Assembly (NCBI GenBank): GCA_015222555.1
Contig: JADFVM010000169.1
Location: 1 to 33,315, forward strand
Length of the DNA stretch: 33,315 nucleotides
DNA from: Pseudomonadota bacterium
GTDB lineage: Bacteria; Desulfobacterota; JADFVX01
Reading direction: 5' to 3'
Shown: in pieces, positions 13,196 to 33,315 of the stretch
Layout of the letters: each line of letters begins with the position of its first letter
How positions within the stretch are numbered: position 1 is the first letter of the stretch
Program-made: the position numbers and the translations under genes
The notes under the pieces: generated by a model
What the model was told of the DNA's origin: nothing
Database searches by the model: none
What the model saw: the letters and a program-made list of their open reading frames with translations, nothing else

Positions 13196-13277
13196 TTATT
13201 CAGCTTATGTCTTGCGCTGAGGTAAAATAGAGCTAAGCTGTAAAGTTAAATACAAATATAAATGTCGGAGGAATTAA

Positions 13278-13907
13278 ATGAGTCTTAAGAAAATATCTGT
13301 AATGCTGTTAACTTTACTTTTGTTGCCCCTGTCCGCAGAGGCCGGCAAAAAGCCTTCCCTTGAAGGTGCATATACAACTCTGCCGGGAGCAGAGTTTAAA
13401 TTTGACGGCAAGACAGTTGAGGTTGTAGAGTTTCTCAGCTTCAGTTGCGGTACCTGTTATGCCTTTGAAAGGTCGGTCCCCATCATAAAAGGGAACTTCC
13501 CAAAAAAGATCAAATGGACAATCGTGCCTATTTATTGGGGAGGTAAAAAAGGCTCCCTTCCTGCGGAAGCTTATCTTCTCGCTGTGGAGGCTGGAAAAGG
13601 AGAAAAGATGAAAAAAGCCCTCTTTCAGGCTAGCATGGTTGATAAGCTAAACATTACAGATGTTAATGTTCTGGAGCGCATCGCCGGCAGAGTGGGTCTC
13701 GGCTTTGATTTTAGCAGAAAAATCAGGACCGGGGCAAAGGCCGGAGAAGTTCAGAAAGGGTTGGATCTGGCCAAGACATACAGCATTAACGAAACACCTA
13801 CCCTGGTTATTGCCGGCAATGTGGCAACTAATCCACATACTGCACATCACGATCTTGATCAATTCAGGATGAATGTTATTACCATTATAAAGAGTATACT
13901 CAAATAG
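13278..13907 (+). CDS. DsbA-family periplasmic thiol:disulfide oxidoreductase
   Basis: Signal peptide (AEA), VVEFLSFSCGTC CXXC motif, and cis-Pro loop ETPTLVI. Confidence 0.85.
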   Translation: MSLKKISVMLLTLLLLPLSAEAGKKPSLEGAYTTLPGAEFKFDGKTVEVVEFLSFSCGTCYAFERSVPIIKGNFPKKIKWTIVPIYWGGKKGSLPAEAYLLAVEAGKGEKMKKALFQASMVDKLNITDVNVLERIAGRVGLGFDFSRKIRTGAKAGEVQKGLDLAKTYSINETPTLVIAGNVATNPHTAHHDLDQFRMNVITIIKSILK

Positions 13908-16744: not shown

Positions 16745-17248
16745 ATGGTAAAGGGTAAAAGAGACATGCGAAACTACATCCGACACCCTTCTGACATTCC
16801 GCTTGAGATTGTTACGGAAACACTGCAGGACAGGTCCCCTCAAACAATGAAAGACGTCAGCCTGGGCGGTCTTTCATTTTTCTCAGAGCAAGCACATAAT
16901 ATATGGGATATCATCAAAGTTAGCATCCCCTATGTTAAACCGGCCTTTGTCAGTGAAGGTCAGGTAACGTGGTGTATTAAACAGGGAGATCGATATGAGG
17001 TGGGAGTTGAGTTCTTCACTGCAGACGATGACAGCAGGGCCCGTATAGTTAAGCAAGTTTTTTATATTGAAGATTTTATAAAAGAGGTGAAAAAGCCGGG
17101 TAGAGGCAGGGACGACATTGAATTAGCGGCACGTGAATGGATTAAACGGCATGTTGTTGATTCTCTCGAAAATGAACCCGATCTTTTTACCTCTAAAATT
17201 AGCCCGAAAAAAGGATCAGACCTTAATAACAGCGATCAACTACTCTGA
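16745..17248 (+). CDS. PilZ-domain protein (candidate c-di-GMP receptor)
   Basis: RxxxR (RNYIR) and DxSxGG (DVSLGG) motifs, G.V.WC, YEVGVEF. AGGAG SD. Confidence 0.88.
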   Translation: MVKGKRDMRNYIRHPSDIPLEIVTETLQDRSPQTMKDVSLGGLSFFSEQAHNIWDIIKVSIPYVKPAFVSEGQVTWCIKQGDRYEVGVEFFTADDDSRARIVKQVFYIEDFIKEVKKPGRGRDDIELAAREWIKRHVVDSLENEPDLFTSKISPKKGSDLNNSDQLL

Positions 17249-18188: not shown

Positions 18189-19418
18189 TCAATGACTCTT
18201 TTTTTTTGATCGCCGGAAAAGAGATCTGATCCCCTTGCGGGGTGAACTCAAAAGACGAATGGTTCTCAGCTGGATGAGATATTCAGTCCATATCATTATT
18301 GCCTCCCAGAAGTTCTCTATAAAACGTACATACCATGGCCGCTTTAACCAGTTTATATACTCTATTTCTCTACTTTCCTCCAGGTCTGCGAGAAACATCC
18401 GGGCCATGTCTTCTGCAAAATGGCTGTCAATGACTTCCTGGTTTGCCTCCAGGTTCCAGCGAAGGCTCCATTTGTCCAGGTTACTTGATCCTATGGAAAT
18501 CCAGTCGTCGCAGAGCATTACTTTGGAATGAAGAAAGCGGGGGGCATATTCAAAGATACGAACGCCATTGCGAAGCAGGGACTGGTAATAACGCTGGCTG
18601 ATTCGTCTCACAGAGGGATGATCTGTCTGCTTCCCCGGCAGAAGGAGACGCACATCAACACCGGCACGGGCCGCTTTTCTCAGGGCTCGACGGATCTTCC
18701 ATGAAGGGATGAAATAGGCCATTTCTATCCAGATGCGTTTCCTGGATTTTCGAATTCTTTTAAGGAGCGATCTAATGATGTCGCGACGGTGAGGTGGCAG
18801 TAAAAGGGCTACCCTGCCTTCCATATCGGCAGCTTCAATAGAATGATTGCCGATGGGCAGGTTGATGAAGGGCTCTCCCCATTGGTTCCAGATTGACTGG
18901 AATGAGGATTGCCAGTCTGAAACAACAGGGCCGGATATCTCTACCATAGTATCGAGCCAGAAATCGGACGGTTGATGTAAAGGAGAAAAGTCATCTGTAA
19001 CTCCTGCACCTCCCGTGTATGCGATTAGGTTATCAATGAGAAGCAGTTTGCGATGGTTTCTACGCAGGTTTGCAAGCCACTTGCCATAGCGAAGGGGGTT
19101 ATAAAAAATAAGAAAAACACCATTTTCAGCCAGGCGTTTCCTGTCTTTACTGTTGAGATTCCACGATCCAAAATCATCAAGAAGAAGATAGACAAAAACC
19201 CCTCTTTTTGCGGCCTTGCAAAGAGCATCAATAAAGCTTGTAGCAACATGGCCGGATTCAAAGATGTACATTTCCATGAGAACGTACTTCTCAGCCCCCT
19301 TAATTGATTTAAGCATGGCCGGAAAAAAGTTGTTTCCATTTTTCAGGCACTTGAAGCTGTTTCCCTTGTACCAGGGCGTTCCTTCCATGACAGGAATATT
19401 TTTTTCTCTCTTCTTCAT
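18189..19418 (-). CDS. Phospholipase D-family cardiolipin synthase (ClsB-like)
   Basis: Two HKD motifs (HRKLLLID, HSKVMLCD), GSSNLD..S...NLE, and no N-terminal TM pair. Start uncertain. Confidence 0.9.
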   Translation of the reverse strand: MKKREKNIPVMEGTPWYKGNSFKCLKNGNNFFPAMLKSIKGAEKYVLMEMYIFESGHVATSFIDALCKAAKRGVFVYLLLDDFGSWNLNSKDRKRLAENGVFLIFYNPLRYGKWLANLRRNHRKLLLIDNLIAYTGGAGVTDDFSPLHQPSDFWLDTMVEISGPVVSDWQSSFQSIWNQWGEPFINLPIGNHSIEAADMEGRVALLLPPHRRDIIRSLLKRIRKSRKRIWIEMAYFIPSWKIRRALRKAARAGVDVRLLLPGKQTDHPSVRRISQRYYQSLLRNGVRIFEYAPRFLHSKVMLCDDWISIGSSNLDKWSLRWNLEANQEVIDSHFAEDMARMFLADLEESREIEYINWLKRPWYVRFIENFWEAIMIWTEYLIQLRTIRLLSSPRKGIRSLFRRSKKKSH

Positions 19419-19545
19419 CGTCAAGTTAAATATATCGGGATAAAGATAGAAGATCAACTCTTCCCGCTTGCATTTTTCACCGGCTGGCTTTATTCAGATA
19501 GTGCTTTGACCTGGTTTTCAGGCGTCGAGATGATCTTTGATGAGT

Positions 19546-22047
19546 TTAGTTCTCTTCAACCCCTTCAGGACCGAAAGGCTTGAAGACGATGATAAGTTGA
19601 GGTAAAAGTGTGAGTGCGGCAATGAGTGCTATAATCATTGCGAGGCCAGTGAGAAGCCCAAAATAAATACTTGGAATGAAATTTGAGAGGATGAGGATTG
19701 AAAAACCGATGATAATTGTGATAGAGGTGTCATACATGGCATATCCTATGCTCTCGTGGCATCGATGCATTGTATTGATATAATTCCTGTCTTTTTCCAC
19801 CTCTTTCTTGAACCTGTGAATGTAGTGGATGGTGTCATCTACGGCGATGCCGACGCTGATTGAAGCGATGGTGATGGTCATCATGTCAAGAGGAATACCC
19901 ATCCATCCCATGAACCCGAGCACAGAACCGACGGAAAGAAGATTGGGGAAAATAGCGATGAGCGCGATTTTTATTGATCTGAAGAGGATCAGGAACATGA
20001 ACATGAGTGCCGCAACGACAGCAGCAAGTGTCAGGATTTGGGAGCTAAAGAGGCTTTGAAGCATGTTGTTGTACAATACCAACAGGCCGGAAAGGTGAAT
20101 GCGTTCCTCCTTAAAGCCAAGCTTGTCGGTGAGGTCGCCTTTAATCTGCTTAAGCAGTTCATTTCTTCTTAAGTCTTCTTCGGAATCCCTTACACGAACA
20201 GCAAAACGGACCTGATCGTTTTCAACAGAAACATAGGGTGATAAAATGATCTTCTTGAACTTCTCCGGTAGCTCTTTATAGATGAGGGCCAGTTTAAAAT
20301 TATCCAGAGGTTCTCCCTTGTTCAACTTCTCACCCACCTTCAGCATTGTTCCAAGAGACAGGACCTTCCCTGTTTCGCTAAGGCTGTCCAGATAATCATG
20401 TATTTTTGTTACCTCTTCCATCTTGTCCGATGTAAACCAGTATTTGGGATCATCTTTGGCAGCCTCAAACTCTTCTTCAAATTCGTCAAATTCATCAAAT
20501 TCTTCATCCTCTGTTGTAGCTGCCTGTTCAATAACTACTTCCTCTTCATTAAAATCAAGTGTGATATTTAGTGGTGTCGTGCCGCCCAGATGCTGATCGA
20601 TGACTTTCATTCCCTGATAGATCTCTGTGGACTCTTTGAAGTAGTCTATAAAACTGTTTTCAACGATGAGCCTCCTCCCTCCCGCAACACTTAGAATCAA
20701 TAAAATGGCGCTTCCGACAATGATGAGTGATCCGTGACGTTCTGTAAAATTGGCAAGCACTTTTGTCAGTGCGAAGCGGGATTCAAATGTGGTATCAGGG
20801 ATTTTTTTTTCAAAAAATATTAGTACTGTAGGAAAAATTAGAAAAGTCAGAATCAATGATACGCCAATTCCGGCGCTCATCATCCAGCCAAAATTGATCA
20901 CAGGCAGTATGTCACAGAGAATAAGAGAACTGAAACCTGCCACTGTCGTTAAGACAGCATAAGTACAAGGTTTAGCCATGGAAGTGACTGTATCAAGAAT
21001 AAGCTGATGCTCAGTTGCCTCGGGATTGAGAGCAATCAGTTCGCGATACCTGACAATAAGGTGGATGGTGACGGCCATGGTGATAATAATCTGAATGGAG
21101 ATGAAGTTGGACGAAATTACTGTTACTTCCCAGCCGAACATTCCCAGTAGACCGCAGGTTGCGATAACGGAAAATGAGCAGCAAATAATGGGCATCAATA
21201 TCCATCGTCGTTGTCTGAAAATTAGCCATAAGGTAATGATTAGAAAACACAAGACACCAATTCCGAAAAGCCTGAGATCATTTTTTACGAAGGAAATCAG
21301 GTCATCGGCAATCATGCTGACACCGCCAAGAAAGAGGTCGGCCTCTCCCCTGTATTTGTCCATGATGGACCTAACATCATGGATGGTCCGGTGTTGTTTG
21401 ATCCGCATCCTGTCCCGATGTTCTTTAAAGCGGACAAGCAGTTCTTTCAGCTCACGCTCTTCACCATCTGTCAAGTCTTCAAGCTTTTGTTTGTCTTTGA
21501 GCTCATTACGGCGGGACAGGAGCTGGTGAAAAACCTTATCTTCTGCCAGATTGGCCTGAAGAGCAGTCGTTTTGAAATCATGGCTGACCAGCATATTGCT
21601 GTAGATTGGACTATTCAGAAACTCCTCCCGGGCCAGCTTTCTGTCCGCATTAGGCGATTCAAGGGTTTGGACATTCTTGACCATTTCCTTGATCGGCATG
21701 GGCGGACTTTCGAGCATCGGCACATTCAGTAAGGAGGTGACGGACTCTACGCCTTCCAGCTGGTTGAGCTCATCACTGAGGTGGCGGATATTATCAAGTG
21801 TCTTGTTTGAAAGGAGATTTTCCCTTGGTGTATAGGTTATGACCAGGAAATCCGGGCTGCCGTACCGGTCATTGATTATCCGTGTATAACGGAGGTCCTC
21901 ATCATCTTCAAGGATAAGGGTTTCTGCAGAGGCATCAACTTCCAGTTTTCTTGCCTCGTATCCAAGGAAGGCAATAACTGCAAGGATGACAAGCAGGACC
22001 AGCCTGGGGTATTGAAGAATAAAGTTGTCGTATAAGCGTCTTAGCAT
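19546..22047 (-). CDS. MMPL/RND-family lipid transporter
   Basis: Two repeats of TM + periplasmic domain + 5 TM, with LTTVAGFSSL and SVGIAVDDTIHYIHRF. Confidence 0.92.
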   Translation of the reverse strand: MLRRLYDNFILQYPRLVLLVILAVIAFLGYEARKLEVDASAETLILEDDEDLRYTRIINDRYGSPDFLVITYTPRENLLSNKTLDNIRHLSDELNQLEGVESVTSLLNVPMLESPPMPIKEMVKNVQTLESPNADRKLAREEFLNSPIYSNMLVSHDFKTTALQANLAEDKVFHQLLSRRNELKDKQKLEDLTDGEERELKELLVRFKEHRDRMRIKQHRTIHDVRSIMDKYRGEADLFLGGVSMIADDLISFVKNDLRLFGIGVLCFLIITLWLIFRQRRWILMPIICCSFSVIATCGLLGMFGWEVTVISSNFISIQIIITMAVTIHLIVRYRELIALNPEATEHQLILDTVTSMAKPCTYAVLTTVAGFSSLILCDILPVINFGWMMSAGIGVSLILTFLIFPTVLIFFEKKIPDTTFESRFALTKVLANFTERHGSLIIVGSAILLILSVAGGRRLIVENSFIDYFKESTEIYQGMKVIDQHLGGTTPLNITLDFNEEEVVIEQAATTEDEEFDEFDEFEEEFEAAKDDPKYWFTSDKMEEVTKIHDYLDSLSETGKVLSLGTMLKVGEKLNKGEPLDNFKLALIYKELPEKFKKIILSPYVSVENDQVRFAVRVRDSEEDLRRNELLKQIKGDLTDKLGFKEERIHLSGLLVLYNNMLQSLFSSQILTLAAVVAALMFMFLILFRSIKIALIAIFPNLLSVGSVLGFMGWMGIPLDMMTITIASISVGIAVDDTIHYIHRFKKEVEKDRNYINTMHRCHESIGYAMYDTSITIIIGFSILILSNFIPSIYFGLLTGLAMIIALIAALTLLPQLIIVFKPFGPEGVEEN

Positions 22048-22070
22048 TAAAGAGCTGTCATCCCGTCCTG

Positions 22071-22673
22071 TTACTTTTTGCCGTCAGGAAGTGCAAAGTT
22101 TCCCGATCTTTGTAATTTTGCCAGTAGAGTTTCAACCGTTCCTTTTTTCAGGATGCCGTCAAATTGGGAACGATAGGTCTGGACAATGCTGACTCCCTGA
22201 ATTTCCACATCATATATCTTCCAGCCCCTTTTTGATTTATAAAACTTATACAGCATATCTACATCGTTATCCTTTGATACAAGGTGTGTCATGATGCGGA
22301 TTTTCTTTTTCACCATGAAGGGTTCCTCATAGACTGCCTCTTCATCGCTGTAAAGGTCCAGTTTTTCAATGTAGGATTCCTGGATACGTTCAACAAAAAG
22401 TGAGGTGTATTCCTTCTGCTGTTCTTCATTTAACGTGGGCCAGTATTTTCTCCCCAGGCTTAGTTTTCCCATTTTCTCGAAGTCAAATATGGGAATAATA
22501 GTCTCTAGAATTTCAGCATTTCTCTTCTGCTTATCCATATCATTTTTCTGAAGGAGAGAAATTACGTTGTCCATCCGCTCTCTTAGCATGGCGTCTACAT
22601 CGCTTTTGTCATCGGCAAAAACAGGTTGCGAAAAAATAAACAAGAAAATAAATAAATAAATGAGCCTTTTCAT
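22071..22673 (-). CDS. MlaC/Ttg2D-family periplasmic lipid-binding protein
   Basis: Signal peptide, FDFEKM..LSLG..W and WKIYDVEIQGVSIVQTYRSQF. Confidence 0.92.
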   Translation of the reverse strand: MKRLIYLFIFLFIFSQPVFADDKSDVDAMLRERMDNVISLLQKNDMDKQKRNAEILETIIPIFDFEKMGKLSLGRKYWPTLNEEQQKEYTSLFVERIQESYIEKLDLYSDEEAVYEEPFMVKKKIRIMTHLVSKDNDVDMLYKFYKSKRGWKIYDVEIQGVSIVQTYRSQFDGILKKGTVETLLAKLQRSGNFALPDGKK

Positions 22674-22675
22674 GA

Positions 22676-23569
22676 CTACTCCCTGACTTTCTTTTTTCTG
22701 TTTTGTTCATAAGCATCCCTTAAAAAGGGGTACAGATCAAGGGCATCCTTTTTTATGCTTTCATATTCACCGATATGATGGGATGCTTCATTCAATATAT
22801 TAAAAGATTTGACAGCCAGTTCCTCTTCCGCTTTTTTTATGTAACTTACAGGGTCCATGAAATAGTCAGGGACAAGGCCGACAACATCACGCAGGTTGGA
22901 TGGGCCGAGAAGAGGCAGGACGATGTGAAATCCACCTCCCAGGCCATAATGGCCCAGGGTTTGACCAAAGTCCTCAGGATAGGCCTCCAGGTTAAACCAG
23001 TTTTTTGCCGGGTCTCCAAGGCCGAGAATGCCCACTGTGGTGTTAACGCCGAAGCGCGTTAATTCTATGCCGGCGCGCTTAAATTTCAGTTGAAGGACGT
23101 TATTGACAAAACGAAGGGGAAAGAGAAGGTTATTAAAGAATCTTGTGACAGAGCGACGTGCGCTTAATGGAACAACTTTTTTGTAGCCGTTGGCCACCGG
23201 TTTGAGCAACCAGAAATAAAACTTATCATTAACAGATGTCATGATTCGGTTATAGCCGCTTAGGGGATCAAAAACTTCTTTGGAAGACGCCTCTTCAAAC
23301 TCTTCTTCCAGGTCGAAGAAGTCTTCATCTTCCTCGTTTTCAGAGCTGTCTATCACGCCCGCATCGGTGACGACCGCTGTTTCAAGTGATGCCATTAAAA
23401 TAGGTGTGGGCGTAAAGTCATAATTCTCTTGAAAAATGACCTCATTTTTTGCAAGGATTGGCTTGGTAGAGTGATTTGATCTGTCAATATCAGAGGGAAT
23501 GTAGGCATGAATAGCTGTGGCATGAAAGAGGAGAAAAATAAAGGCAAAAAAAATATAAAAACGGGACAT
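22676..23569 (-). CDS. mlaA: MlaA/VacJ-family protein
   Basis: DPLSGYNR, RFGVNTTVGILGL.D, EDFGQTLG.YG, VLPLLGPSNLRD, Y..LRDAYEQNR. Confidence 0.92.
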   Translation of the reverse strand: MSRFYIFFAFIFLLFHATAIHAYIPSDIDRSNHSTKPILAKNEVIFQENYDFTPTPILMASLETAVVTDAGVIDSSENEEDEDFFDLEEEFEEASSKEVFDPLSGYNRIMTSVNDKFYFWLLKPVANGYKKVVPLSARRSVTRFFNNLLFPLRFVNNVLQLKFKRAGIELTRFGVNTTVGILGLGDPAKNWFNLEAYPEDFGQTLGHYGLGGGFHIVLPLLGPSNLRDVVGLVPDYFMDPVSYIKKAEEELAVKSFNILNEASHHIGEYESIKKDALDLYPFLRDAYEQNRKKKVRE

Positions 23570-23875
23570 TTAAATGTTTAACCTCTTATAGCCATAGCCG
23601 GAACAAGTTTTTATTTTCAGTACTATTAAACCTGCATTTACAGAACAATAATTTAATCTTTATAACAGATTGGGGAAGATTAATCAACGCAGCAAAAATA
23701 AAAAATTGCGAATATTTTAAAGTGGTAAAACAGAGGTGTTTTTAAGTTTAATTGATGTGTCGATCAGATGTTTATTGCGTGGAAAGAAAGAATCTTCGAA
23801 AAACTGACATTTTCAGTTTCTTTACGGTTAACAGCAAGTATCGATGAAAATCAGAAAACGATCCTTCATGGACAG

Positions 23876-24883
23876 CTATTCAGCCATGATGCAACGGTTT
23901 CGACCTTCTTCCTTTGCCTTATAAAGAGCTTCATCGGCTCTGGCGACCAGATCGTCAGGATTGCCCGATTTGTCTGGCTGCATGACTGCAACACCAAGGC
24001 TGATACTGACAAAATCCGCTACATCTGAATAGGCATGTGGGATATTTTGTTTCTCAATATTTGCCCGCATTTCTTCTGCTACTTTTGCAGCCCCGTCAGC
24101 GTCTGTGCCGGGAAGTATGGCCACGAATTCCTCGCCTCCATAACGGGCAAGAAAGTCACCGGAGCGGATAATGGTCTCATCGAGAGTCGAGGCGACCTGT
24201 TTCAGGCAGTCATCTCCACCCTGATGTCCGTAACCGTCATTATATTTTTTGAAAAAGTCGATGTCGAGAATGACAACGGCAACCTGGTGCTTTTCTCTCC
24301 AGCCCCGTTTCCATTCCTGCGCCAGCATTTCATCAAAATGGCGGCGGTTGGCAATACCTGTGAGACCGTCAAGCACTGAAAGCCGCTGCAGGATGGCATT
24401 GCTTTTTTTCAGTTCTTCCTGAAGCTTTTCCATTTCACGGTATGCTTCGTCGCGTTGGAGCTGTAACAGATAGGTTTTAGAGTGCGCCCGGATTCTGGCA
24501 ACCAGTTCAATTTTGTCGGGCAATTTTACCAGGTAATCACTGGCGCCATTTTCAAAGGCCTGTCTCTTGGCCATAGGATCTTCCTTGGTGGAAAGGACAA
24601 TAACCGGGGTAGCCGACGTGGCAGGGTTGGCGCGATAAAACTTTAAAAGTGTATATCCGTCCACATCGGGCATGACAAGGTCCTGCAGGATGATGCTTGG
24701 CTGTATCTCGTTGGCTGTTTGGACGGCTTTTGACGATTCCTGACAATAATGGAACTCAATATCCTTGTCGTCCACCAGCATTCTGCGTATCGCTTCTGAT
24801 ACGATGGCCTGGTCATCTACGAGTAATACCACCGGATGGGGCAGGTCTTTTTTCTCTTCTTCAGGTATATGGTCTTCGCTCAT
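23876..24883 (-). CDS. wspR: WspR-like REC-GGDEF diguanylate cyclase
   Basis: REC domain (LLVDDQ, ILQDLVMP, DYLVKLPD.IEL.ARIR.HS), coiled stalk, I-site RSGD and active site GGEEF. Confidence 0.93.
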   Translation of the reverse strand: MSEDHIPEEEKKDLPHPVVLLVDDQAIVSEAIRRMLVDDKDIEFHYCQESSKAVQTANEIQPSIILQDLVMPDVDGYTLLKFYRANPATSATPVIVLSTKEDPMAKRQAFENGASDYLVKLPDKIELVARIRAHSKTYLLQLQRDEAYREMEKLQEELKKSNAILQRLSVLDGLTGIANRRHFDEMLAQEWKRGWREKHQVAVVILDIDFFKKYNDGYGHQGGDDCLKQVASTLDETIIRSGDFLARYGGEEFVAILPGTDADGAAKVAEEMRANIEKQNIPHAYSDVADFVSISLGVAVMQPDKSGNPDDLVARADEALYKAKEEGRNRCIMAE

Positions 24884-24895
24884 GATCGCAGTACT

Positions 24896-25927
24896 TTATT
24901 TGGATTTTATCTGATAAGCAAGTATTTTTTTTGTCAGCGCCTCAGCAATGTCATCAATGGGTAGAATGTCTACAGCGGCATTCAATTCAACGGCGGCCTT
25001 GGGCATGCCGTATACCCTGCATGTCTCCGCATTTTGCGCAACCGTATAGATTCCATTCTGCTTCAGTTGGAGTAAGCCATCAGCGCCGTCTTTGCCCATT
25101 CCTGTCAGAAGCGCTGCAACGGCTTTTCCGCCCCAGTTCTTAAGGATGCTGTTAAAAAAGACATCGACAGAAGGTCTGTAAGGAGTCTGTAATGGATTCT
25201 CTTTGTATACGAGGCAACTTCTCTCGTTAATATAGAGATGATTGTTCGTGCCGGCAACAAGAACCGTGCCGTGATTTAGCCTGTCCCCATCCATGGCAAG
25301 ACGTACGGGAAGTTTTGAATATTCACCAAGCCAGTCGGCAAAACCCTGTGAAAAGTTTTCGTCTACATGCTGCACAATAACAACGGCTGCCGGCAGGTCC
25401 TTTGGAAGAGTGGAAAGAATTTTTATGAGGGCTGCAGGCCCTCCTGTAGACGCTCCCAGTGCAAGTAAGCATTTGTCTGATGTGTCAGGTTTGGGTGACA
25501 CGCTTAAATTGAGTGAAGTTTTTTTCCGATCTGCATCGATGAGTTTGCCGATGGTCCGTATTTTCTTGAGAAGCTCATTTTTACCATCTGCCTCTCCACT
25601 TGTGCCGAGGATGGGGGTACTTACGGCATCCAGCGCGCCCACACTCATGGCCTCAAAAACTTTGGCTGCGTTGGCAGTGACTGAAGCGGTGACCACCAGT
25701 ATAGGACATGGGGAATTGGCCATGATGTTTCGAGATGCTTCCACACCATTCATCTCAGGCATGATGAGGTCCATAAGTATGAGATCAGGCACGTCGTCGG
25801 CACATCGACTCACCGCTTCCTTGCCGTCCTTTGCAATCCATGCAACCTCATATCCTTGTACCGTTGTTATGATGCGCCGCATGACTTCTACGGCCATTTT
25901 CATGTCATTGACGATGGCAATTCTCAT
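24896..25927 (-). CDS. wspF: WspF/CheB methylesterase
   Basis: MRIAIVND-type REC domain. Catalytic triad motifs GASTGG, VQHVD and TGMGKDG. Confidence 0.93.
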   Translation of the reverse strand: MRIAIVNDMKMAVEVMRRIITTVQGYEVAWIAKDGKEAVSRCADDVPDLILMDLIMPEMNGVEASRNIMANSPCPILVVTASVTANAAKVFEAMSVGALDAVSTPILGTSGEADGKNELLKKIRTIGKLIDADRKKTSLNLSVSPKPDTSDKCLLALGASTGGPAALIKILSTLPKDLPAAVVIVQHVDENFSQGFADWLGEYSKLPVRLAMDGDRLNHGTVLVAGTNNHLYINERSCLVYKENPLQTPYRPSVDVFFNSILKNWGGKAVAALLTGMGKDGADGLLQLKQNGIYTVAQNAETCRVYGMPKAAVELNAAVDILPIDDIAEALTKKILAYQIKSK

Positions 25928-28698
25928 AGATTTCCTTCTCCGATAAGATCTGTAACAGCATTAAGAAAGGTATTGTCGTGAAAGCTGCCTTTCGTCAGAT
26001 AATAATCTGCGCCTGCGTCGAGACCGCGCCTGCGGTCTTCCGCCCTTTCCTTATAAGATACAATGATAACGGGAATAGAACTGAAGTTGCGGTCACTTTT
26101 GATCAAACGTACCAGTTCAAAACCGTCCATGCGCGGCATGTCAATATCGCTGATGATGAGGTCATAGTTCTGGTATGATCGAATGGCGTTCCAGCCGTCC
26201 CTTCCGTCTACGGCAATATCCACACTGTAACCTGCTTTTTCCAAAAGGTTGCGCTCCACTTCACGAACGGTGAGAGAGTCGTCCACCACCAGGATATGCT
26301 TGCGTTCTTCCTCTAAAGCTTCACTTAATGTGCGCTGCACTTTACCGATGCGATCTTTTTTTACAAGCGAGTCTACAGAATATACCAGATCATCTACATC
26401 AATGATCAAGACAGGTGAACCATCTTCAAGAAGCGCGGTGGCGCTAATATCGTCTATTTTACCAAGAAGTGGATCAAGGGTCTGCACGGCAAGTTCCTTT
26501 TGACCAATGAAGCGGTCAACCACAACGCCGTAGGTTTTTTCATGAGTACCAATTATTACGACAGACATCTCCTCCCCCTCAACTAGCTGCGATCCAAAAC
26601 CAAAGACAAGTGATGCTCCAACAATGCCTATGTTCTGACCATCTATACTGATGAACTGGTGGTCTTCAAGTACTTCGACATGATTGGAGGGGATTTTTAC
26701 GGCGTGATTGATCCGTGCCAGGGGAAAGGCGTAGGGTTCTCCGGCAATGTCCACAATCAATGTCGACATAACAGAAAGAGTTATAGGTAATTGCAGATGG
26801 AAACATGTGCCCTTTCCCAGTTCTGTCGTTGTTTTGATTGCCCCATGCATGGCCTGAATTGTGTCCAGCACGACATCGAGACCCACACCTCTACCAGACA
26901 GGTCTGTCACTTCATCCCTTGTTGAGAAGCGTGGAAGAAAAAGAAAGTCTAACAGCTCTTCTTCGCTTAGGTTTGCGCCCATCTCAGGTGTTACCTGACC
27001 TTTTTCAATGACCTTCTTTCTCAAATGGTCCAGATCTATACCACGTCCGTCATCTTCAATGATAATGGATAACATGCCATTACTATGTGTCGCAGTCAGC
27101 CGTATTAGTGCCTGTTCCGGTTTCTCTGACTCAAGACGCTCTTCCGGTGATTCAATGCCGTGGTCAATTGCATTACGCAAAAGATGGTTAAGAGGGGCTT
27201 CCATCTTTTCAAGAACATCTCTGTCCACCTGTGTAGCAAGCCCATTAATCTCAAGTCGGATCTTTTTCCCTAGTGACTTTGCAATATCGCGTACCATACG
27301 TTGAAAACCGTGGACACCATCTAAAAAAGGACGCATGCGTGTCACGATGGTTTCACGATGCAAGCGTTCAGACAGGTTAGTTATTCGTTGGTCATAGCTG
27401 TCAAGTTCACTTATCTGCTCGGAGAGTATTTGCCGGCATTTTACTGCCTTGGCTTGGGCCGCGTGCACCTGCTGTGATACAGTTTCACGGGCATGCAGGT
27501 CGTCCAACGTGTCTCTAAGGGAGTCAAGAACCTCGACCAGCTCAGTATGTTCGTGCTTTAATCTGCCCAGCGAAGACACATAGGGGTGCAACCATCCCGC
27601 TTCAACCTTAACTTCTCCGGCAAGGCTCATCAGGTAATTCCATCGTTCCGCGGTGACGCGCAGAACACGGTCTTTTTCTGCCTCTCCCTTGCTCTTTTTT
27701 GCAGGCTTTGCTTCGGTTTGTGATGATTGTTCGATTTGAGGTGATGTATTAGTTTCGGTGATTAAAATGCTGTCCTGAATCTCCTTTAGTGAGGCGTCAT
27801 CCTTTGATTTGATAAAACCGAGTGCTTTAAGAAGGTTTCCCAGACTATCGCCATGTTTTGTCCCCCAGTTGGCTATCTCATTTTCAGATAGTTTTGCAAT
27901 GGAGGTAATGGCATCAACCCCGGCAAGTAGCACATCGACGTAATCTGCATTGAGCGTAATATCAGAATTCTGGGCGGCAACAAAGACATCTTCCATGATA
28001 TGGGCCAGTTGCACCACCGGGTCGACACCCACCAGACGGGCGGCGCCTTTGACGGAGTGGGCGGCACGCATGAGCGCCTCCAGCCTTTTGGCAGCCGTGG
28101 GGTCTTCCTCCAGCGCCAGAAGAGATTCTGTGATAATTTTCCCCTGATCGGCCACTTCGGTGCGGAAGAGATCAATCATAGACGCATTGGCCAAATCAAC
28201 AGTTCTGTCGGCCGGTTGTTCCGCCTCGGTCTCTGCGGCTACTTCCTCCTTTTTTGATGAACGTGACGAAGGTTTCTCGGATATGGCCGTGCCAGGCTTG
28301 ATATCACCGATAGCGCCGACGATATCATCCATTTCTTTTTTGTGACTGTCTTCCCATCCCTTGATTTCTTCCTCGGAAAGTTCTGAAATCGAAGTGATCA
28401 GGTCATTGCCGCTTAACAGTATATCTACATGGTCGCTAGTAAGCACTATTTCTGCATTTTGAGCAGCGACAAAGGCATCTTCCATGACGTGGGCCAGTTT
28501 CACCACAGGATCGATACCAACAAGACGAGCGGCGCCTTTAACGGAATGAGCGGCACGCATTAGCGCCTCCAGGCGATCGGCAGCACTGGGGTCTTCCTCC
28601 AGTGCAAGCAGCCCGTCTGTTATGATTTTACCCTGTTCACCAACCTCTGTGCGGAACAGGTCAATCATGGAAAAATTACTTAGATCATCATTTGCCAT
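25924..28698 (-). CDS. wspE: WspE/CheA hybrid kinase with two Hpt domains, HATPase, CheW and REC
   Basis: MRAAHSVKGAAR twice, HLLRNAIDHGIE, EDDGRG, SGRGVGLDVV, a CheW domain, and C-terminal REC ending YYLTKGSFHD. Confidence 0.93.
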   Translation of the reverse strand: MANDDLSNFSMIDLFRTEVGEQGKIITDGLLALEEDPSAADRLEALMRAAHSVKGAARLVGIDPVVKLAHVMEDAFVAAQNAEIVLTSDHVDILLSGNDLITSISELSEEEIKGWEDSHKKEMDDIVGAIGDIKPGTAISEKPSSRSSKKEEVAAETEAEQPADRTVDLANASMIDLFRTEVADQGKIITESLLALEEDPTAAKRLEALMRAAHSVKGAARLVGVDPVVQLAHIMEDVFVAAQNSDITLNADYVDVLLAGVDAITSIAKLSENEIANWGTKHGDSLGNLLKALGFIKSKDDASLKEIQDSILITETNTSPQIEQSSQTEAKPAKKSKGEAEKDRVLRVTAERWNYLMSLAGEVKVEAGWLHPYVSSLGRLKHEHTELVEVLDSLRDTLDDLHARETVSQQVHAAQAKAVKCRQILSEQISELDSYDQRITNLSERLHRETIVTRMRPFLDGVHGFQRMVRDIAKSLGKKIRLEINGLATQVDRDVLEKMEAPLNHLLRNAIDHGIESPEERLESEKPEQALIRLTATHSNGMLSIIIEDDGRGIDLDHLRKKVIEKGQVTPEMGANLSEEELLDFLFLPRFSTRDEVTDLSGRGVGLDVVLDTIQAMHGAIKTTTELGKGTCFHLQLPITLSVMSTLIVDIAGEPYAFPLARINHAVKIPSNHVEVLEDHQFISIDGQNIGIVGASLVFGFGSQLVEGEEMSVVIIGTHEKTYGVVVDRFIGQKELAVQTLDPLLGKIDDISATALLEDGSPVLIIDVDDLVYSVDSLVKKDRIGKVQRTLSEALEEERKHILVVDDSLTVREVERNLLEKAGYSVDIAVDGRDGWNAIRSYQNYDLIISDIDMPRMDGFELVRLIKSDRNFSSIPVIIVSYKERAEDRRRGLDAGADYYLTKGSFHDNTFLNAVTDLIGEGNL

Positions 28699-28700
28699 TC

Positions 28701-29387
28701 TTACTGAAGGCTCCTCTCTATCTGGGAAATCAATAAGTCCTCATCGATGCAACCCACAGATTTGCCGTCATACTTGATAATACCCCGCATATAACTTGCC
28801 AGTGAATCTGATAAAGTCTTGGGCAGCGCTTCCATCTCTTCCCCTTTGAAATGATAAATACCAATGATTTCAGTGACGGGAAATGCAAATCGTTTACCTT
28901 CTTTTTCAAGAACAAGCAAACGTTTGAATTTGGCGTGGCTTTCTTCATCATAATCACGCTCACCCTTTGAAAGACCGAGTATTGCGCCAAGAGAAAAGCA
29001 GGGTTGAACCTCTCCAGCCGAACTAACAACACCCTTTAAGATTGAATTCTTGTTATGGGGTAGCCTGTGGATTTTAGACATCTTTGTGATTTCTCTGCAA
29101 AGATTTGCAGCAAGCGTTACCCATTCGTCACCGATACGGAAGATAATAACCGCCCGTGTTTCAGATAATGCATCATCTTTATCCCCTGAAAGTACACTAG
29201 TCCATTCCCTGCGGTAATCCTCAGGCACACGTTGCTCATAAACTTCAAGGCTGGCCGCATGAAAGACATCGCAGTTGCGGCAGTGAATGACAGTTTCAAG
29301 TTCCGGACAACGTGGTGTCTCTGTTCCCCAGACACCAATCCGTTGCCAGCAATTTTCTCTATCAAGGTTTTTCTTTTTCTTAGCCAT
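28701..29387 (-). CDS. wspD: WspD CheW-like adaptor
   Basis: N-terminal CWQRIGVWG...CPEL...IHCRNC motif followed by a CheW domain (IHRLPH). Confidence 0.92.
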   Translation of the reverse strand: MAKKKKNLDRENCWQRIGVWGTETPRCPELETVIHCRNCDVFHAASLEVYEQRVPEDYRREWTSVLSGDKDDALSETRAVIIFRIGDEWVTLAANLCREITKMSKIHRLPHNKNSILKGVVSSAGEVQPCFSLGAILGLSKGERDYDEESHAKFKRLLVLEKEGKRFAFPVTEIIGIYHFKGEEMEALPKTLSDSLASYMRGIIKYDGKSVGCIDEDLLISQIERSLQ

Positions 29388-29417
29388 TGTTTATGATTTC
29401 CATCTCCTTCTCTGAAG

Positions 29418-30737
29418 CTATGACCCTGCCTTTTTGTCCTCTCTTCTTTTGACTCGTTCTGCGCGAGTTCTGAATCCTTCCGCTTTATTGAGATCACCCA
29501 TCCGCTCAGACAAAGTGGCTAAATAGGTGAGGGCTTCATAAAATGTCGGATCAAGATAAACAGCCTTTCTTAGGTACTCATCAGCCTGGTAGGCATCACC
29601 CATGGAATCCACTGCTTTACCGAGAATGAAATAGACTTGTGCTGACACAGCGTCCTCTTTTATCAGTTCTTCACATAGGGCAACCGTTTCCTTAAAGGCA
29701 CCCTCATCGGCCAACCTGATGGCTTCAGCAATTTTAGCTTCAGCATGGGAGGGCTGCTTTTCATTACTTTCATCCCTACGCTTCATGAGCGGGGGCTTTG
29801 CCGTCAGAGATTCAATCTTTGTGAGGGGCGGCGTCTTTCCCGGGACTGTTTGTTTCTTTTCCGGATCGGTTTGAATTTGAATTTTACTTCTTTCCCTCTG
29901 AATGGGTGTAGAAATATTGAGAAGGGCATTAATCCTTTTTGCCTCTTTTATTTTTGCAAAAGAAAAGGCCATGGGATAATCCAGTTGATCAAATCGATGG
30001 GTAGATAAACTTGCCGTTTCTGCATGACCAACAAAAAGAACACCGTCGCTGCAGAGTAATTGCGATAATGCTGCAATCGCCTTTTTCTTTGCCGATTCGT
30101 CAAAATAGATCAAAAGATTTCGGCAGAATATAACATCGTAACAGTCACGGTCAGAGACAAAATCATGGGCAAGCAGATTGCCCTGCTGAAAATTGACAGC
30201 GCCATGAACCTTATCTTTCAGGCGATATTCTTCGCCTTCTTTCGAAAAATGACGCTCACGAAAGTCGAGATCCTTCCCGCGGAATGAATAAGCGCGAAAT
30301 AATCCCGACTTAGCCGACTTGATAAACTGATCACTAATATCGACAGCGTCTATTTGAAACTGATCACTGTTCAGGCCCATATCGAAGAGAAGCATGGCAA
30401 TGGAATAGGGTTCCTCACCGGTAGAACAGGGAGCGCTCAGTATCCGTAATGGAGAAGTAGGCTCAATGTTTGTCCTGAATTGTCTGACATATTGCCCCAG
30501 TGCTGTAAATGGTGTTCTGTCACGAAAAAAGAATGTTTCCGGGATGACGACGGCCTCAGTGAGTTTTCGCAGTTCAGATGGATCATTGTTAAGCCTTTTA
30601 AGGTAATCATAAACGCTAGAGGAGCCACATTCGGACATGCACTTATGAATGTGCTTTTCAACTGTTGAAATGCCAATGGACTGAGCATTAAGTCCAATTT
30701 GATCTTCTAATAATTTTAAAACCAGTGTGATATCCAT
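29418..30737 (-). CDS. wspC: WspC CheR methyltransferase with C-terminal TPR
   Basis: VVIPETFFFRD, LSAPCSTGEEPYSIAM, IFCRNLLIYFD, and TPR LRKAVYLDP. Confidence 0.93.
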   Translation of the reverse strand: MDITLVLKLLEDQIGLNAQSIGISTVEKHIHKCMSECGSSSVYDYLKRLNNDPSELRKLTEAVVIPETFFFRDRTPFTALGQYVRQFRTNIEPTSPLRILSAPCSTGEEPYSIAMLLFDMGLNSDQFQIDAVDISDQFIKSAKSGLFRAYSFRGKDLDFRERHFSKEGEEYRLKDKVHGAVNFQQGNLLAHDFVSDRDCYDVIFCRNLLIYFDESAKKKAIAALSQLLCSDGVLFVGHAETASLSTHRFDQLDYPMAFSFAKIKEAKRINALLNISTPIQRERSKIQIQTDPEKKQTVPGKTPPLTKIESLTAKPPLMKRRDESNEKQPSHAEAKIAEAIRLADEGAFKETVALCEELIKEDAVSAQVYFILGKAVDSMGDAYQADEYLRKAVYLDPTFYEALTYLATLSERMGDLNKAEGFRTRAERVKRREDKKAGS

Positions 30738-30774
30738 GGGCTACAATATTTTTAAAGTTGCCGGTGGCAAGACG

Positions 30775-31239
30775 CTAGTCATCTGACGATTCGCCTTTAA
30801 ACAAGATCTCGTAGGCCTCTTCCGGAAGTAGTTTTGCTATATTTATCCTTTGGGCAACACCCTTGTCATCGGTGGCAACACTATCGAGATAGGGCTCCTC
30901 TTCAAGATTGACACCTGAACTTGAAAACTCACTTTCATCCCAATTGACGGTTTCTGTTAAATGTTCATTGAGTATGCCTATGCAAAACTGCTGGCCATCG
31001 TCCTTATTATAGTTTGTCAGGACGATTCTCGAACTTAACTTGGGTTCACATTTTTTGTCAGTCATTAAATAGCAAACGTCTATGACGGGAATAGTTTTCC
31101 CTCTATAGTTCAAAAGACCAGCAACATAGGAAGGCGCTTTCGGGATCTTCTTCAGATGAACAAAGGGGATGATCTCTATCACATTTTTTGCTTCAAGGAG
31201 GTAGCGGTCATCACCCGATTTGAATTGCAGAAAGAGCAT
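30775..31239 (-). CDS. wspB: WspB CheW-like adaptor
   Basis: MLFLQF start, AGLLNYRG..IPVID and LSSRIVL. Lies between the MCP and cheR genes. Confidence 0.92.
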   Translation of the reverse strand: MLFLQFKSGDDRYLLEAKNVIEIIPFVHLKKIPKAPSYVAGLLNYRGKTIPVIDVCYLMTDKKCEPKLSSRIVLTNYNKDDGQQFCIGILNEHLTETVNWDESEFSSSGVNLEEEPYLDSVATDDKGVAQRINIAKLLPEEAYEILFKGESSDD

Positions 31240-31247
31240 GATATTAA

Positions 31248-33263
31248 TCAAGAATTATCTTTGACTTTAAACTTGATAACACCGCCTTGCAGGGTGTGCG
31301 CAGCGTCATTGAGCTGCATAATCGCCTCATTGGATTCCTTCAGTGATTCCACCGTTTGCTGCGCTGCTTCATTAAGTTGAATCATGGATTGATTGATATG
31401 TCCTGCCCCTTCGGCCTGGAACTGCATACCCTGATGTACAGTTTCAAACCGTGGCGTTAAGGTCTGAACCTGTTCAATTATCTGGCCAAGCTGTGAAGCC
31501 ACTTCTCTAACATTGTTGACACTATGTCGCACCTGCTCGGAAAATTTCTCCATACTCATAACACCTGATGATACAGCTGTTTGCATTTCTTTTACCATCT
31601 GTTCTATATCAAGTGTGGCAACGGCAGTCTGATCGGCAAGGCGGCGAATTTCCTTGGCAACTACGGAGAAGCCAAATCCATATTCACCCGCTTTCTCGGC
31701 CTCGATGGCGGCATTGAGTGAGAGAAGGTTTGTTTGATCGGCCACCTTTGTTATTGTCGTAACAACAGTGCTAATATTGCCGGCCTTTTCATTAAGTACT
31801 TCAAATTTAGATGAGATTGTTCCTGCCGCTTCAACAATGTTATTCATTGTTGATTCCATGCTTTCCAGACCTGTTTGACCGACTTCTGCAGCCGTGGCTG
31901 TGCTTTCTGCAACATTGGAAACTTCATCCATGGTGGTGACCAGTTCCTTTGACGTCGCTGAGATTTCTGTTGCCGTTGTTACGATTTCATTGGTCGTTGC
32001 CGCCTGCTCGGCAACGGTGGCTTCCTGTTGCTTAGCTGTTGCTGCAATAGAGTTTGCGGCAGATGCCAGTTGGATGCCGGATCGCTGTACCTGGGTGACC
32101 AGTCCATTGAGATTGCCTATCATTCGCTGCATTCCATCGCCCAGCTGGAATATAGCATCATCACCTTCAATTTCTATTTTGCCTGTAAGGTCTCCCTCAG
32201 CGGCCTTGGTGACGACGCCAAGAATCATGTCAACACGCTGCTGCAGAGATTCCATTGTTCTTACCTTCTCTTCGCTCGCTTCGCTGATATAGGTAATCAT
32301 GTTTTGCAGCTGCTTTGCCAGTTCGCCTATGGCATCTGTTCCAGAAAAGCTGACTTCTACTGAATAGTTGCCCTGGGCAACCTTGTTAACAACTCGCAAT
32401 AAATCATCGACCTTTGCTCTCATCTCTTCTGCCGCAGCATGCTCCCTCTTCATACGTTCCTGTTCGCGAGCGGCAGCCTCATCGTTGCTGTCAGACATAT
32501 GATTAAATGCAATAGCCAGTTTGCCCAATTCATCTTCTGTCGAGACAGGGACGGCCCTGGCGTCCAGTTCCCCATTTGCTCTTCTGTTGACTACATCCAT
32601 GAGGCTGTTTAAGGGAGTGATGATCCAGAATTTAAACAGAAGGTTCACCAGGAGGAGACCTATAATGAAGAAGGCGGTACTGCCACCGATTGACATCCAG
32701 AGTTCGTGATTAACTGCATCATAAATTTCATCGAGAGAGAAGCTGATGCGAACAGCGCCGTTAATATCGCCATCCTTAACATCATGGCACTGGAGGCAGT
32801 TTACACCGGCTGTGTCTTCAGTTGCCTTGAAGGGTGTAATGACGACGAGAGTCCTCTTCCCATTGGTCTCAATGATTTCATGTATTTCCTCTCCTCTTAA
32901 TGCACGCGCATCCAGGTTGTCCCTGGGCGCGCTTCCCGGCGTACCCGGACCATATTGATTTTTAACGGGATCCCCGCGGAGTGACCTTGCTTCTATTACT
33001 CCCTTACGTGCAAGCATTTTTTTACTGATTATCTCGCGCTGGTCCATTGTGCCTGTGAGCATCATCGTATTCAAACTGTCAAAATACATGGTGGTTAAGT
33101 CTCTTGTCTGCTCCTGCACCTGTTCCATTAGCACTGCTTGCTCCCGCGTGACGTTATAAGTTGTAAGCAAAGCGATGACAATGGCAAAAATGAAGGCCAC
33201 GGAAAAGTTGACTTTTGATCTGATAGGTAAGCGATTAATAAACTCCAGGCGGTTTAAAATCAT
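31248..33263 (-). CDS. wspA: WspA-like methyl-accepting chemoreceptor with a periplasmic CXXCH domain and multiple HAMPs
   Basis: Two TMs flank a periplasmic domain containing CLQCH, followed by about three HAMP-like repeats. The signalling hairpin VADQTNLLSLNAAIEAEKAGEYG.GFSVVA.EIRRLADQT is WspA-type. Confidence 0.9.
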   Translation of the reverse strand: MILNRLEFINRLPIRSKVNFSVAFIFAIVIALLTTYNVTREQAVLMEQVQEQTRDLTTMYFDSLNTMMLTGTMDQREIISKKMLARKGVIEARSLRGDPVKNQYGPGTPGSAPRDNLDARALRGEEIHEIIETNGKRTLVVITPFKATEDTAGVNCLQCHDVKDGDINGAVRISFSLDEIYDAVNHELWMSIGGSTAFFIIGLLLVNLLFKFWIITPLNSLMDVVNRRANGELDARAVPVSTEDELGKLAIAFNHMSDSNDEAAAREQERMKREHAAAEEMRAKVDDLLRVVNKVAQGNYSVEVSFSGTDAIGELAKQLQNMITYISEASEEKVRTMESLQQRVDMILGVVTKAAEGDLTGKIEIEGDDAIFQLGDGMQRMIGNLNGLVTQVQRSGIQLASAANSIAATAKQQEATVAEQAATTNEIVTTATEISATSKELVTTMDEVSNVAESTATAAEVGQTGLESMESTMNNIVEAAGTISSKFEVLNEKAGNISTVVTTITKVADQTNLLSLNAAIEAEKAGEYGFGFSVVAKEIRRLADQTAVATLDIEQMVKEMQTAVSSGVMSMEKFSEQVRHSVNNVREVASQLGQIIEQVQTLTPRFETVHQGMQFQAEGAGHINQSMIQLNEAAQQTVESLKESNEAIMQLNDAAHTLQGGVIKFKVKDNS

Positions 33264-33315
33264 AACAGTTCTCCTTTTATATATTTCAAAAAACTTTTCG
33301 TAATAAGATGTTAAA

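Follow-up and report, generated by a model that had tools for sequence, protein, structure and literature searches.

A Wsp-family operon headed by a chemoreceptor with a predicted periplasmic c-type haem sensor in a Desulfobacterota genome

The wsp locus

The stretch of DNA considered here is contig JADFVM010000169.1 of assembly GCA_015222555.1, and its full length of 33,315 nucleotides is called the window. Between positions 23876 and 33263 its minus strand carries seven contiguous open reading frames (ORFs) which, according to the ORF list and their Pfam domains, follow the order wspA-B-C-D-E-F-R with overlaps or short gaps between them (Table 1). A first-pass annotation, made from the letters alone, had described a complete Wsp pathway for cyclic di-GMP (c-di-GMP) with intact catalytic motifs and a haem-c sensing receptor at its head, and both the gene order and the expected domains bear out the first part of that description. 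The GGEEF of WspR is intact and its RSGD occupies the RxxD I-site position, two motifs which we take to mark an active, I-site-bearing WspR. The histidine of the Hpt domains, the aspartate of the REC domains and the active-site motifs of CheB are likewise visible in the Wsp protein sequences of the window, where the residues regarded as catalytic are those we assume to be so.

Table 1. Coordinates of the wsp genes and of the receptor features in the window
Feature	Position	Strand	Description
wspA	31248-33263	-	671-aa transmembrane chemoreceptor; Pfam HAMP and MCPsignal 452-631
wspB	30775-31251	-	CheW-like coupling protein; Pfam CheW
wspC	29418-30737	-	CheR methyltransferase with C-terminal TPR; Pfam CheR, TPR_17, TPR_8
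wspD	28701-29387	-	CheW-like, N-terminal four-Cys extension; Pfam CheW 80-223
wspE	25924-28698	-	Hybrid CheA kinase, Hpt-Hpt-HATPase_c-CheW-REC; Pfam
wspF	24896-25927	-	REC-CheB methylesterase; Pfam; NCBIfam PRK12555, 459 bits (cut-off 342)
wspR	23876-24883	-	REC-GGDEF diguanylate cyclase; Pfam; GGEEF 249-253, RSGD 240-243
Periplasmic sensor domain, residues 36-195	32679-33158	-	Single-Cache fold (model) with haem-c motif
CLQCH (C156, C159, H160)	32784-32798	-	Predicted covalent haem-c attachment site and proximal His ligand
Met68	33060-33062	-	Predicted distal axial haem ligand; aligns with Met60 of GSU0935
HAMP1, residues 213-259	32487-32627	-	Pfam HAMP, 53 bits, above cut-off 25
HAMP2, divergent, residues about 285-326	32286-32411	-	Pfam HAMP, 23.6 bits, E = 6.5e-5, just below cut-off 25
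HAMP3, divergent, residues about 350-386	32106-32216	-	Pfam HAMP, 17.7 bits, E = 0.0047, below cut-off 25

The receptor WspA has two transmembrane (TM) helices, seen as hydrophobic helices in its sequence: TM1 at about residues 17-35 and TM2 at about 188-215. The CLQCH motif (residues 156-160) lies between them, at exactly the position before TM2 that the first-pass annotation had given, and its two cysteines are the only ones in the receptor. The methionine-rich segment named in the same annotation, NTMMLTGTM, spans residues 65-73. About three HAMP-like repeats had also been proposed, which is a fair estimate: scanned one by one against Pfam HAMP, the three candidates score as one canonical unit and two divergent units.

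The Wsp identity of the pathway is best seen at its output end. WspR matches Pseudomonas aeruginosa WspR (3BRE) over its full length (residues 5-331) with 362 bits and E = 2.2e-107, and also a second WspR structure, 3I5A, with PleD at 158 bits. At the input end, the signalling domain of WspA falls within a clade (support 100) of Wsp-type receptors, 48-62% identical to it, from 24 other wsp-like loci, and the Joint Genome Institute (JGI) names WspA two of the best 120 of the 346 receptor homologues described below. The orthology of WspA to WspF was judged from domain architecture and synteny, and no Pseudomonas WspA-WspF sequence was in the comparison. The receptor does not have the 4HB_MCP_1 sensor of Pseudomonas WspA; it has a single Cache (sCache) domain with CXXCH. 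The type of sensor varies among Wsp and Wsp-like receptors, and therefore does not define the family. On these sequence comparisons the operon is a Wsp-family system, for which a c-di-GMP output and a biofilm phenotype can be predicted by analogy.

Conservation of the haem motif

A survey of CXXCH among homologues had been proposed at the outset, and its outcome favours the motif. A search with receptor residues 30-200 gave 346 proteins at E <= 0.001 among 919 candidates, of which the best 120 were analysed together with the query; CXXCH stands at the equivalent position in all 121 sequences, and 106 of them have exactly two cysteines. An exhaustive search with the sensor only (residues 36-195) returned 639 cluster representatives at E <= 0.001, 317 of them at E <= 1e-10. 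Among the best 150 of these, 147 carry CXXCH, and the three that do not match query residues 1-100 only, so that the matched part stops short of the motif. On such counts, CXXCH in the receptor is no chance occurrence.

An alignment of 88 sensor relatives of at least 430 amino acids, taken in rank order up to 50,000 residues (A1), has among its invariant columns both cysteines, the histidine and the methionine equivalent to Met68. Most of these full-length relatives (83 of 88) are methyl-accepting chemotaxis proteins (MCPs).

Fold and family of the sensor

An AlphaFold2 model of the sensor, built from a 34-sequence alignment, reached a predicted local distance difference test (pLDDT) score of 94.9. 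Foldseek against the PDB gave as its top match 3b42_B, the sensor of Geobacter GSU0935 (E = 4.2e-5, probability 1.00), with 3b47 (GSU0582) in eighth and Tll0287 in tenth place amid sCache domains such as that of WalK. VIA-align matched the model to WalK (Z 13.3, root-mean-square deviation (rmsd) 3.1 over 126 residues), DcuS (Z 10.4) and Tll0287 (Z 9.7). According to this model the periplasmic domain has a single-Cache fold, in which C156-H160 falls in helix 121-124, just ahead of strand 132-141 (model numbering). In the receptor sequence the domain is flanked by two hydrophobic helices and is taken as extracytoplasmic.

The same two Geobacter domains were reached by sequence. In a phmmer search of the PDB, 3b42 (E = 0.0036) and 3b47 (E = 0.016) were the only matches better than E = 0.1, and both alignments run end to end with CXXCH in register. 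The sensor-only profile placed 3b47 first (E = 0.014), with 3b42 at E = 0.6, and seven of the ten rows among its PDB matches at E <= 1 are cytochromes or haem sensors. In addition, Pfam PF21563, which describes the Geobacter "Mcp40H-20" c-haem sensors, is reached by three of the 88 relatives, the best of them at 1.8e-5. The first-pass annotation had pointed to the c-haem sensors of Geobacter chemoreceptors; the sensor of the receptor is related to these, and retains CXXCH and a methionine at the position of their distal ligand.

The sCache_heme family was defined in a preprint by Deshpande et al. (2026; PMC12889525) as comprising DUF3365/Tll0287 together with GSU0582 and GSU0935; its CXXCH is 99% conserved, haem incorporation has been demonstrated for two members, and fusions to MCPs are included. 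Family members fused to signalling modules are described as binding nitric oxide (NO) without forming a stable oxy-complex (PMC12889525). Because of the Cache fold, the top Foldseek match to GSU0935, the retained CXXCH and the alignment of Met68, the sensor of the window is assigned, on sequence and model, to a divergent branch of sCache_heme. It is very probably a haem-binding domain, judging from the same alignments and model.

Predicted haem ligation

In GSU0935, Cys140 and Cys143 attach the haem, and His144 and Met60 are its axial ligands (PMC8396549). GSU0582 and GSU0935 pass from a high-spin oxidised form to a low-spin reduced form in which Met60 is bound, and both NO and carbon monoxide (CO) bind by displacing Met60 (PMC8396549). 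In the phmmer alignment, Met68 of the window receptor pairs with chain residue 26 of 3b42, which corresponds to Met60 of GSU0935 by the offset of His144. Met68 is present in every sequence of alignment A1 (88 sequences) and of A3, and in at least 90% of A2. The methionine-rich segment therefore probably supplies an exchangeable distal ligand, a proposal underlain by a weak alignment.

A relative of the sensor occurs elsewhere in the genome, on contig C268, where a 595-aa open frame encodes a histidine kinase with a periplasmic domain that the sensor hidden Markov model (HMM) recognises (E = 1.3e-13). In this protein C-X5-CH (CSLTTGCH) replaces CXXCH and an insert of about 60 residues is present. 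It may have a variant haem motif or be a haem-less relative.

Shuffling of the receptor and spread of the operon

Related loci were found in 34 cases. Ten of them contain full-length relatives of the receptor (55-71% identity, all with CXXCH), and come from metagenome-assembled genomes (MAGs) labelled Chromatiaceae, Chromatiales, Sedimenticola, Polarisedimenticolaceae, Gammaproteobacteria and Deltaproteobacteria. In all ten, wsp genes follow the receptor; three are ended by contig ends, and six of the seven with enough downstream DNA show B-C-D-E-F-R, a WspF match not being found in the remaining locus, L003. The fused receptor thus heads the same operon wherever a related locus has enough DNA, which is a conserved linkage. 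The other 24 loci, which also hold wsp-like clusters, match the receptor from about residue 340 to 670 only, at 48-62% identity. When 23 receptors from these loci were scanned, some showed CHASE3, Cache_3-Cache_2, dCache_1, 4HB_MCP_1, sCache_3_2 or PDC domains, and nine had no sensor assigned by Pfam.

The two halves of the receptor have different relatives. By BLAST, 116 full-length family members share 54-77% identity in the sensor and 64-90% in the signalling domain. The other cluster representatives of at least 480 amino acids (109 sensor matches and 92 signalling matches, with P0122 and P0128 set apart) share 31-54% in the sensor (median 41) and 22-32% in the signalling domain (median 28). 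A signalling-domain tree was also built from 71 rows, namely every third sensor relative, the locus receptors of at least 500 amino acids and the window receptor; it is a quick LG+G4 tree with midpoint root and support from the Shimodaira-Hasegawa-like approximate likelihood ratio test (SH-aLRT) only, and no Pseudomonas WspA is among its rows. In this tree the haem-Wsp receptors form one clade (99) inside the clade (100) of Wsp-type receptors with other sensors, and 25 of the 34 sampled sensor relatives fall in a separate clade (98). By these comparisons the sensor and signalling halves have discordant ancestry, which supports domain shuffling, and the first-pass idea of a domain-swapped Wsp system is supported by both the BLAST identities and the tree.

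The operon also looks patchily distributed. In four genomes of the same family, the whole-receptor query gave best matches of 29-31% identity in the signalling domain and no orthologue was found, and for the sensor query three of the four contained matches, all of them distant (23-31% identity). Kessler et al. (PMC8552884) have reported that Wsp systems are transferred horizontally, with which a patchy distribution is in keeping. Since no same-family orthologue was found and yet receptors 55-71% identical occur in Chromatiales, Sedimenticola and Deltaproteobacteria MAGs, the whole operon appears, on these sequence comparisons, to move horizontally between lineages.

Two further sets of loci deserve mention. 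In L020 (9308-10999) and L022 (8848-10539), from MAGs labelled Deltaproteobacteria and Syntrophobacteraceae, receptors of 564 amino acids head wsp-like clusters and carry CXXCH at residue 149 in a periplasmic domain that matches no Pfam family. They may represent a second, independent haem-type Wsp receptor; a second haem-Wsp lineage is not claimed here, as no similarity to the sensor was seen by HMM, by hhalign (which aligned a TM helix only) or by Pfam. In many non-proteobacterial wsp-like clusters (L010-L013, L015, L016, L019, L022 and L032), the final gene aligns with the REC part of WspR alone (query residues about 16-169), which indicates an output domain that is either not GGDEF or too diverged to match.

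Proposed mechanism

We consider it likely that the locus encodes a Wsp-family pathway in which the usual Wsp-type cytoplasmic module has been joined to a periplasmic sCache sensor with covalent c-type haem of the sCache_heme type. The Ccm system would attach haem to C156 and C159 in the periplasm; the genome encodes CcmE (88.6 bits) and shows a weak ResB-like match. H160 would bind the haem on its proximal side and Met68 of the N-terminal helix would be the exchangeable distal ligand, so that a change in haem coordination would move this helix. The trigger could be oxidation or reduction of the iron, or a diatomic gas displacing Met68, in which case NO would be the most likely gas by analogy with the characterised relatives. 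TM2 and the three HAMP units would relay the movement of the N-terminal helix to the signalling tip, which would set the autophosphorylation of WspE via WspB and WspD. Phosphorylated WspE would activate WspR, raising c-di-GMP, and also WspF, whose demethylation, together with methylation by WspC, would adapt the receptor. By analogy with the characterised systems, biofilm formation in this bacterium is probably tied to redox state or nitric oxide; haem attachment, ligation by Met68, the signal and its sign, and the biofilm output are all predictions of this model.

Evidence against the model and alternative explanations

Several observations weigh against this model. Haem binding is deduced from motif, fold and remote homology, with identities to the Geobacter domains of 20-22%. 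Neither Pfam model of the known haem sensors accepts the receptor sensor, PF21563 scoring 16.7 bits (cut-off 27) and PF11845 (Tll0287-like) 12.9 bits (cut-off 24.1). The profile of alignment A2, which includes the HAMP columns, retrieved neither 3b42 nor 3b47 at E <= 1; its PDB matches are HAMP and transducer entries only, the HAMP columns having swamped the search. Against the two canonical stand-alone Tll0287-like (PF11845) proteins of the genome, hhalign of the sensor profile gave a non-significant probability of 24%, with CXXCH in register. Furthermore, 3b42 and 3b47 are absent from the 50 VIA-align entries shown; this absence and the rmsd of 14-16 A in Foldseek would fit the domain-swapped chains of the Geobacter crystal form (PMC8396549). 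As for NO, neither a cd1 nitrite reductase (PF02239) nor H-NOX was found in the genome, which is 94.65% complete (NirK was not searched); these searches give no sign of an internal source of NO. Lastly, chimeras of P. aeruginosa WspA with the sensors of PctA, PctB, PctC or CtpM keep surface sensing (PMC8846402), so that a Wsp receptor can be driven without its own sensor domain.

The chimeras lead to the alternative that survives best, in which surface contact or envelope or membrane stress, acting via the TM region, mainly drives the pathway, and the haem domain is a modulator or a structural or dimerisation module. The stimulus of WspA is indeed thought to act through the TM regions (PMC8846402; the same view in bioRxiv 10.1101/2024.04.09.588698), and genes for MlaA, MlaC, an MMPL transporter and a PLD-family enzyme, with roles in outer-membrane lipid handling, lie downstream of the operon. 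The sensor is nevertheless strongly constrained (54-77% identity over the 116 full-length members, with CXXCH invariant and Met68 invariant or nearly so), which is unexpected for a dispensable spacer and weakens this alternative; in ordinary WspA the sensory domain is the least conserved part (Kessler et al., PMC8552884), and another Wsp-like receptor has been described to bind specific ligands (bioRxiv 10.1101/2024.04.09.588698). An origin of the signal in the membrane is therefore held to be unlikely.

Considerably less probable is a CXXCH that serves as a metal-ion site or a redox-active disulphide in a ligand-binding Cache domain. The sub-threshold Pfam scores would agree with such a role, and the C-X5-CH found at the equivalent place in the histidine kinase of the same genome indicates that the motif is somewhat plastic. 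Against it stand the histidine that follows the second cysteine throughout the 121 sequences and in 147 of the best 150 representatives, the covalent haem at the aligned motif in the closest solved structures, and the 99% conservation of CXXCH in the DUF3365/Tll0287/GSU0582 family, with haem shown for two members (PMC12889525); the PDB matches of the sensor-only profile are moreover mostly c-type cytochrome haem motifs, and CcmE is encoded. That the haem domain mainly passes electrons like a cytochrome, without any switch, as has been proposed for stand-alone sCache_heme members with their stable ligation and redox-type behaviour (PMC12889525), and as the two stand-alone PF11845 proteins of this genome might suggest, is hardly credible for a domain that sits between two TM helices, is fused to HAMP and MCP modules and heads a signalling operon, an architecture which the same preprint assigns to sensors. 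The nearest relatives of the domain are nearly all MCPs (83 of 88).

Relation to known systems

With Pseudomonas Wsp, an ACF-class chemosensory pathway, the operon shares all seven genes and their order; two CheW-like proteins, CheR-TPR, a hybrid CheA-REC, CheB and REC-GGDEF are among them. Pseudomonas WspA differs in its haem-free 4HB_MCP_1 sensor, for which one stimulus model (surface or membrane stress) is held, whereas the window system has sCache with CXXCH, three HAMP units and a duplicated Hpt in WspE. The Geobacter receptors GSU0582 and GSU0935 (3B47 and 3B42), the best PDB matches by both Foldseek and sequence, have in common with it an MCP periplasmic domain between two TM helices, CXXCH just before the last strands and a methionine of the N-terminal helix at the Met60 position. 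They are distant in sequence, belong to PF21563, for which the window sensor is below threshold, and are standalone MCPs; the available text (PMC2577667) places neither of them in a Wsp operon. The sCache_heme family as a whole shares the Cache fold, the short CXXCH helix before the last strand and the fusion to MCPs, and differs in that the window sensor falls below the PF11845 threshold.

Two other kinds of system come close by function. HtChe2 of Halomonas titanicae, with its receptor Htc10, is also a chemosensory pathway controlling a diguanylate cyclase through a dedicated receptor with a non-4HB ligand-binding sensor; Htc10, however, has a dCache domain binding purines, and the gene content and order of its cluster are unlike wsp (bioRxiv 10.1101/2024.04.09.588698), whereas the window has the canonical operon and a cofactor-bearing sCache sensor with predicted haem. 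In H-NOX and NosP circuits, too, the c-di-GMP enzymes that control biofilms stand downstream of a haem-based gas sensor. These are cytoplasmic b-haem or FIST proteins acting through partner kinases or enzymes, while the window sensor is periplasmic, with predicted c-haem, and wired via a methylation-adapting chemosensory array.

The first-pass annotation had regarded the combination as uncharacterised. Literature searches found no mention of haem in WspA, or of Wsp in the sCache_heme papers; the word "Wsp" is absent from the available text of both versions of the sCache_heme preprint and of a related preprint, supplementary sequence tables not being covered, and "c-type heme" does not occur in the available portion of a 2022 census of c-di-GMP sensors. 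To that extent the claim holds. Its novelty was overrated, since Geobacter c-haem MCPs (2008) and the sCache_heme family (2026) are already known, and a Wsp-like pathway with a swapped ligand-binding dCache sensor was published in 2024 (bioRxiv 10.1101/2024.04.09.588698). With both modules and sensor exchange in Wsp-like systems known, the gain is incremental, and the window subfamily may itself be among the roughly 20,000 sCache_heme sequences of PMC12889525.

Other features of the operon and its surroundings

In wspE the Hpt duplication is visible as a 300-nt direct repeat (27875-28174 and 28364-28663) with 73% DNA identity and a spacing of 489 nt, and the two Hpt domains are an old tandem duplication. 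In some of the related loci the alignment begins at WspE residue 1, and these may contain both copies; in many it begins only at about residue 168.

Residues 13-39 of WspD contain a four-cysteine motif, CW..IGV.G....C..L....HC.NC. All four cysteines are kept in 27 of the 31 WspD-like alignments from loci L001-L034, and the other four alignments begin past residue 55; the MAGs concerned are labelled Proteobacteria, Verrucomicrobia, Cyanobacteria and others. From its sequence the motif looks like a metal or iron-sulphur site at the heart of Wsp-type arrays. WspD motifs are given without known function by Kessler et al., and neither "cysteine" nor "zinc" occurs in the available text (PMC8552884); a literature search for WspD and cysteine found neither term in titles or abstracts among the matches listed.

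Only 52 nt lie upstream of wspA before the contig end, and across 22000-33315 a scan for promoters and terminators found as many of them as in shuffled sequence. Directly downstream of wspR, at 19546-23569 (-) and 18189-19457 (-), MlaA, MlaC, an MMPL/RND-type transporter and a PLD-family enzyme are encoded, which is an outer-membrane lipid-handling set. A PilZ-domain protein, a possible c-di-GMP receptor, is encoded at 16745-17248 (+), 6.6 kb from wspR. At 10843-13907 (+), genes for a ThiF-rhodanese protein, a multihaem protein of the cytochrome c554 type and a DsbA-like thioredoxin stand in a row, the second of which indicates that the organism makes c-type cytochromes.

The genome measures 2.7 Mb, with 44.7% GC, and encodes about six CheA-like genes; the WspD query matches only the gene in the window. 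At least half of the sampled words of the query gene occur in each of four DNA runs, which come from as many studies labelled sediment or cold-seep metagenome, and one of these runs may be the source sample; runs with a small share were left out of account for habitat. The sequencing-run search listed no RNA run containing the gene.

Biological meaning

The broader proposition is that, in at least 116 distinct full-length receptors from uncultured sediment and seep bacteria, Wsp has been turned into a periplasmic haem-c sensor of redox state or NO that sets c-di-GMP with methylation adaptation, in an operon moving horizontally; to this whole we would give an even chance. If true, the stimulus of a Wsp-family system would for the first time be chemically defined, and a periplasmic c-haem sensor would for the first time be seen to act on a chemosensory array whose output is a second messenger. 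The stimulus of WspA in Pseudomonas is still debated in the available literature, and a Wsp receptor with a spectroscopically tractable cofactor would offer a defined input for studies of Wsp arrays, in which ligation and redox state could be set and read optically. Such a receptor would also add a periplasmic c-haem route beside the cytoplasmic H-NOX and NosP routes that lead from NO or redox state to c-di-GMP, and would suggest how bacteria living at sediment redox gradients time their attachment.

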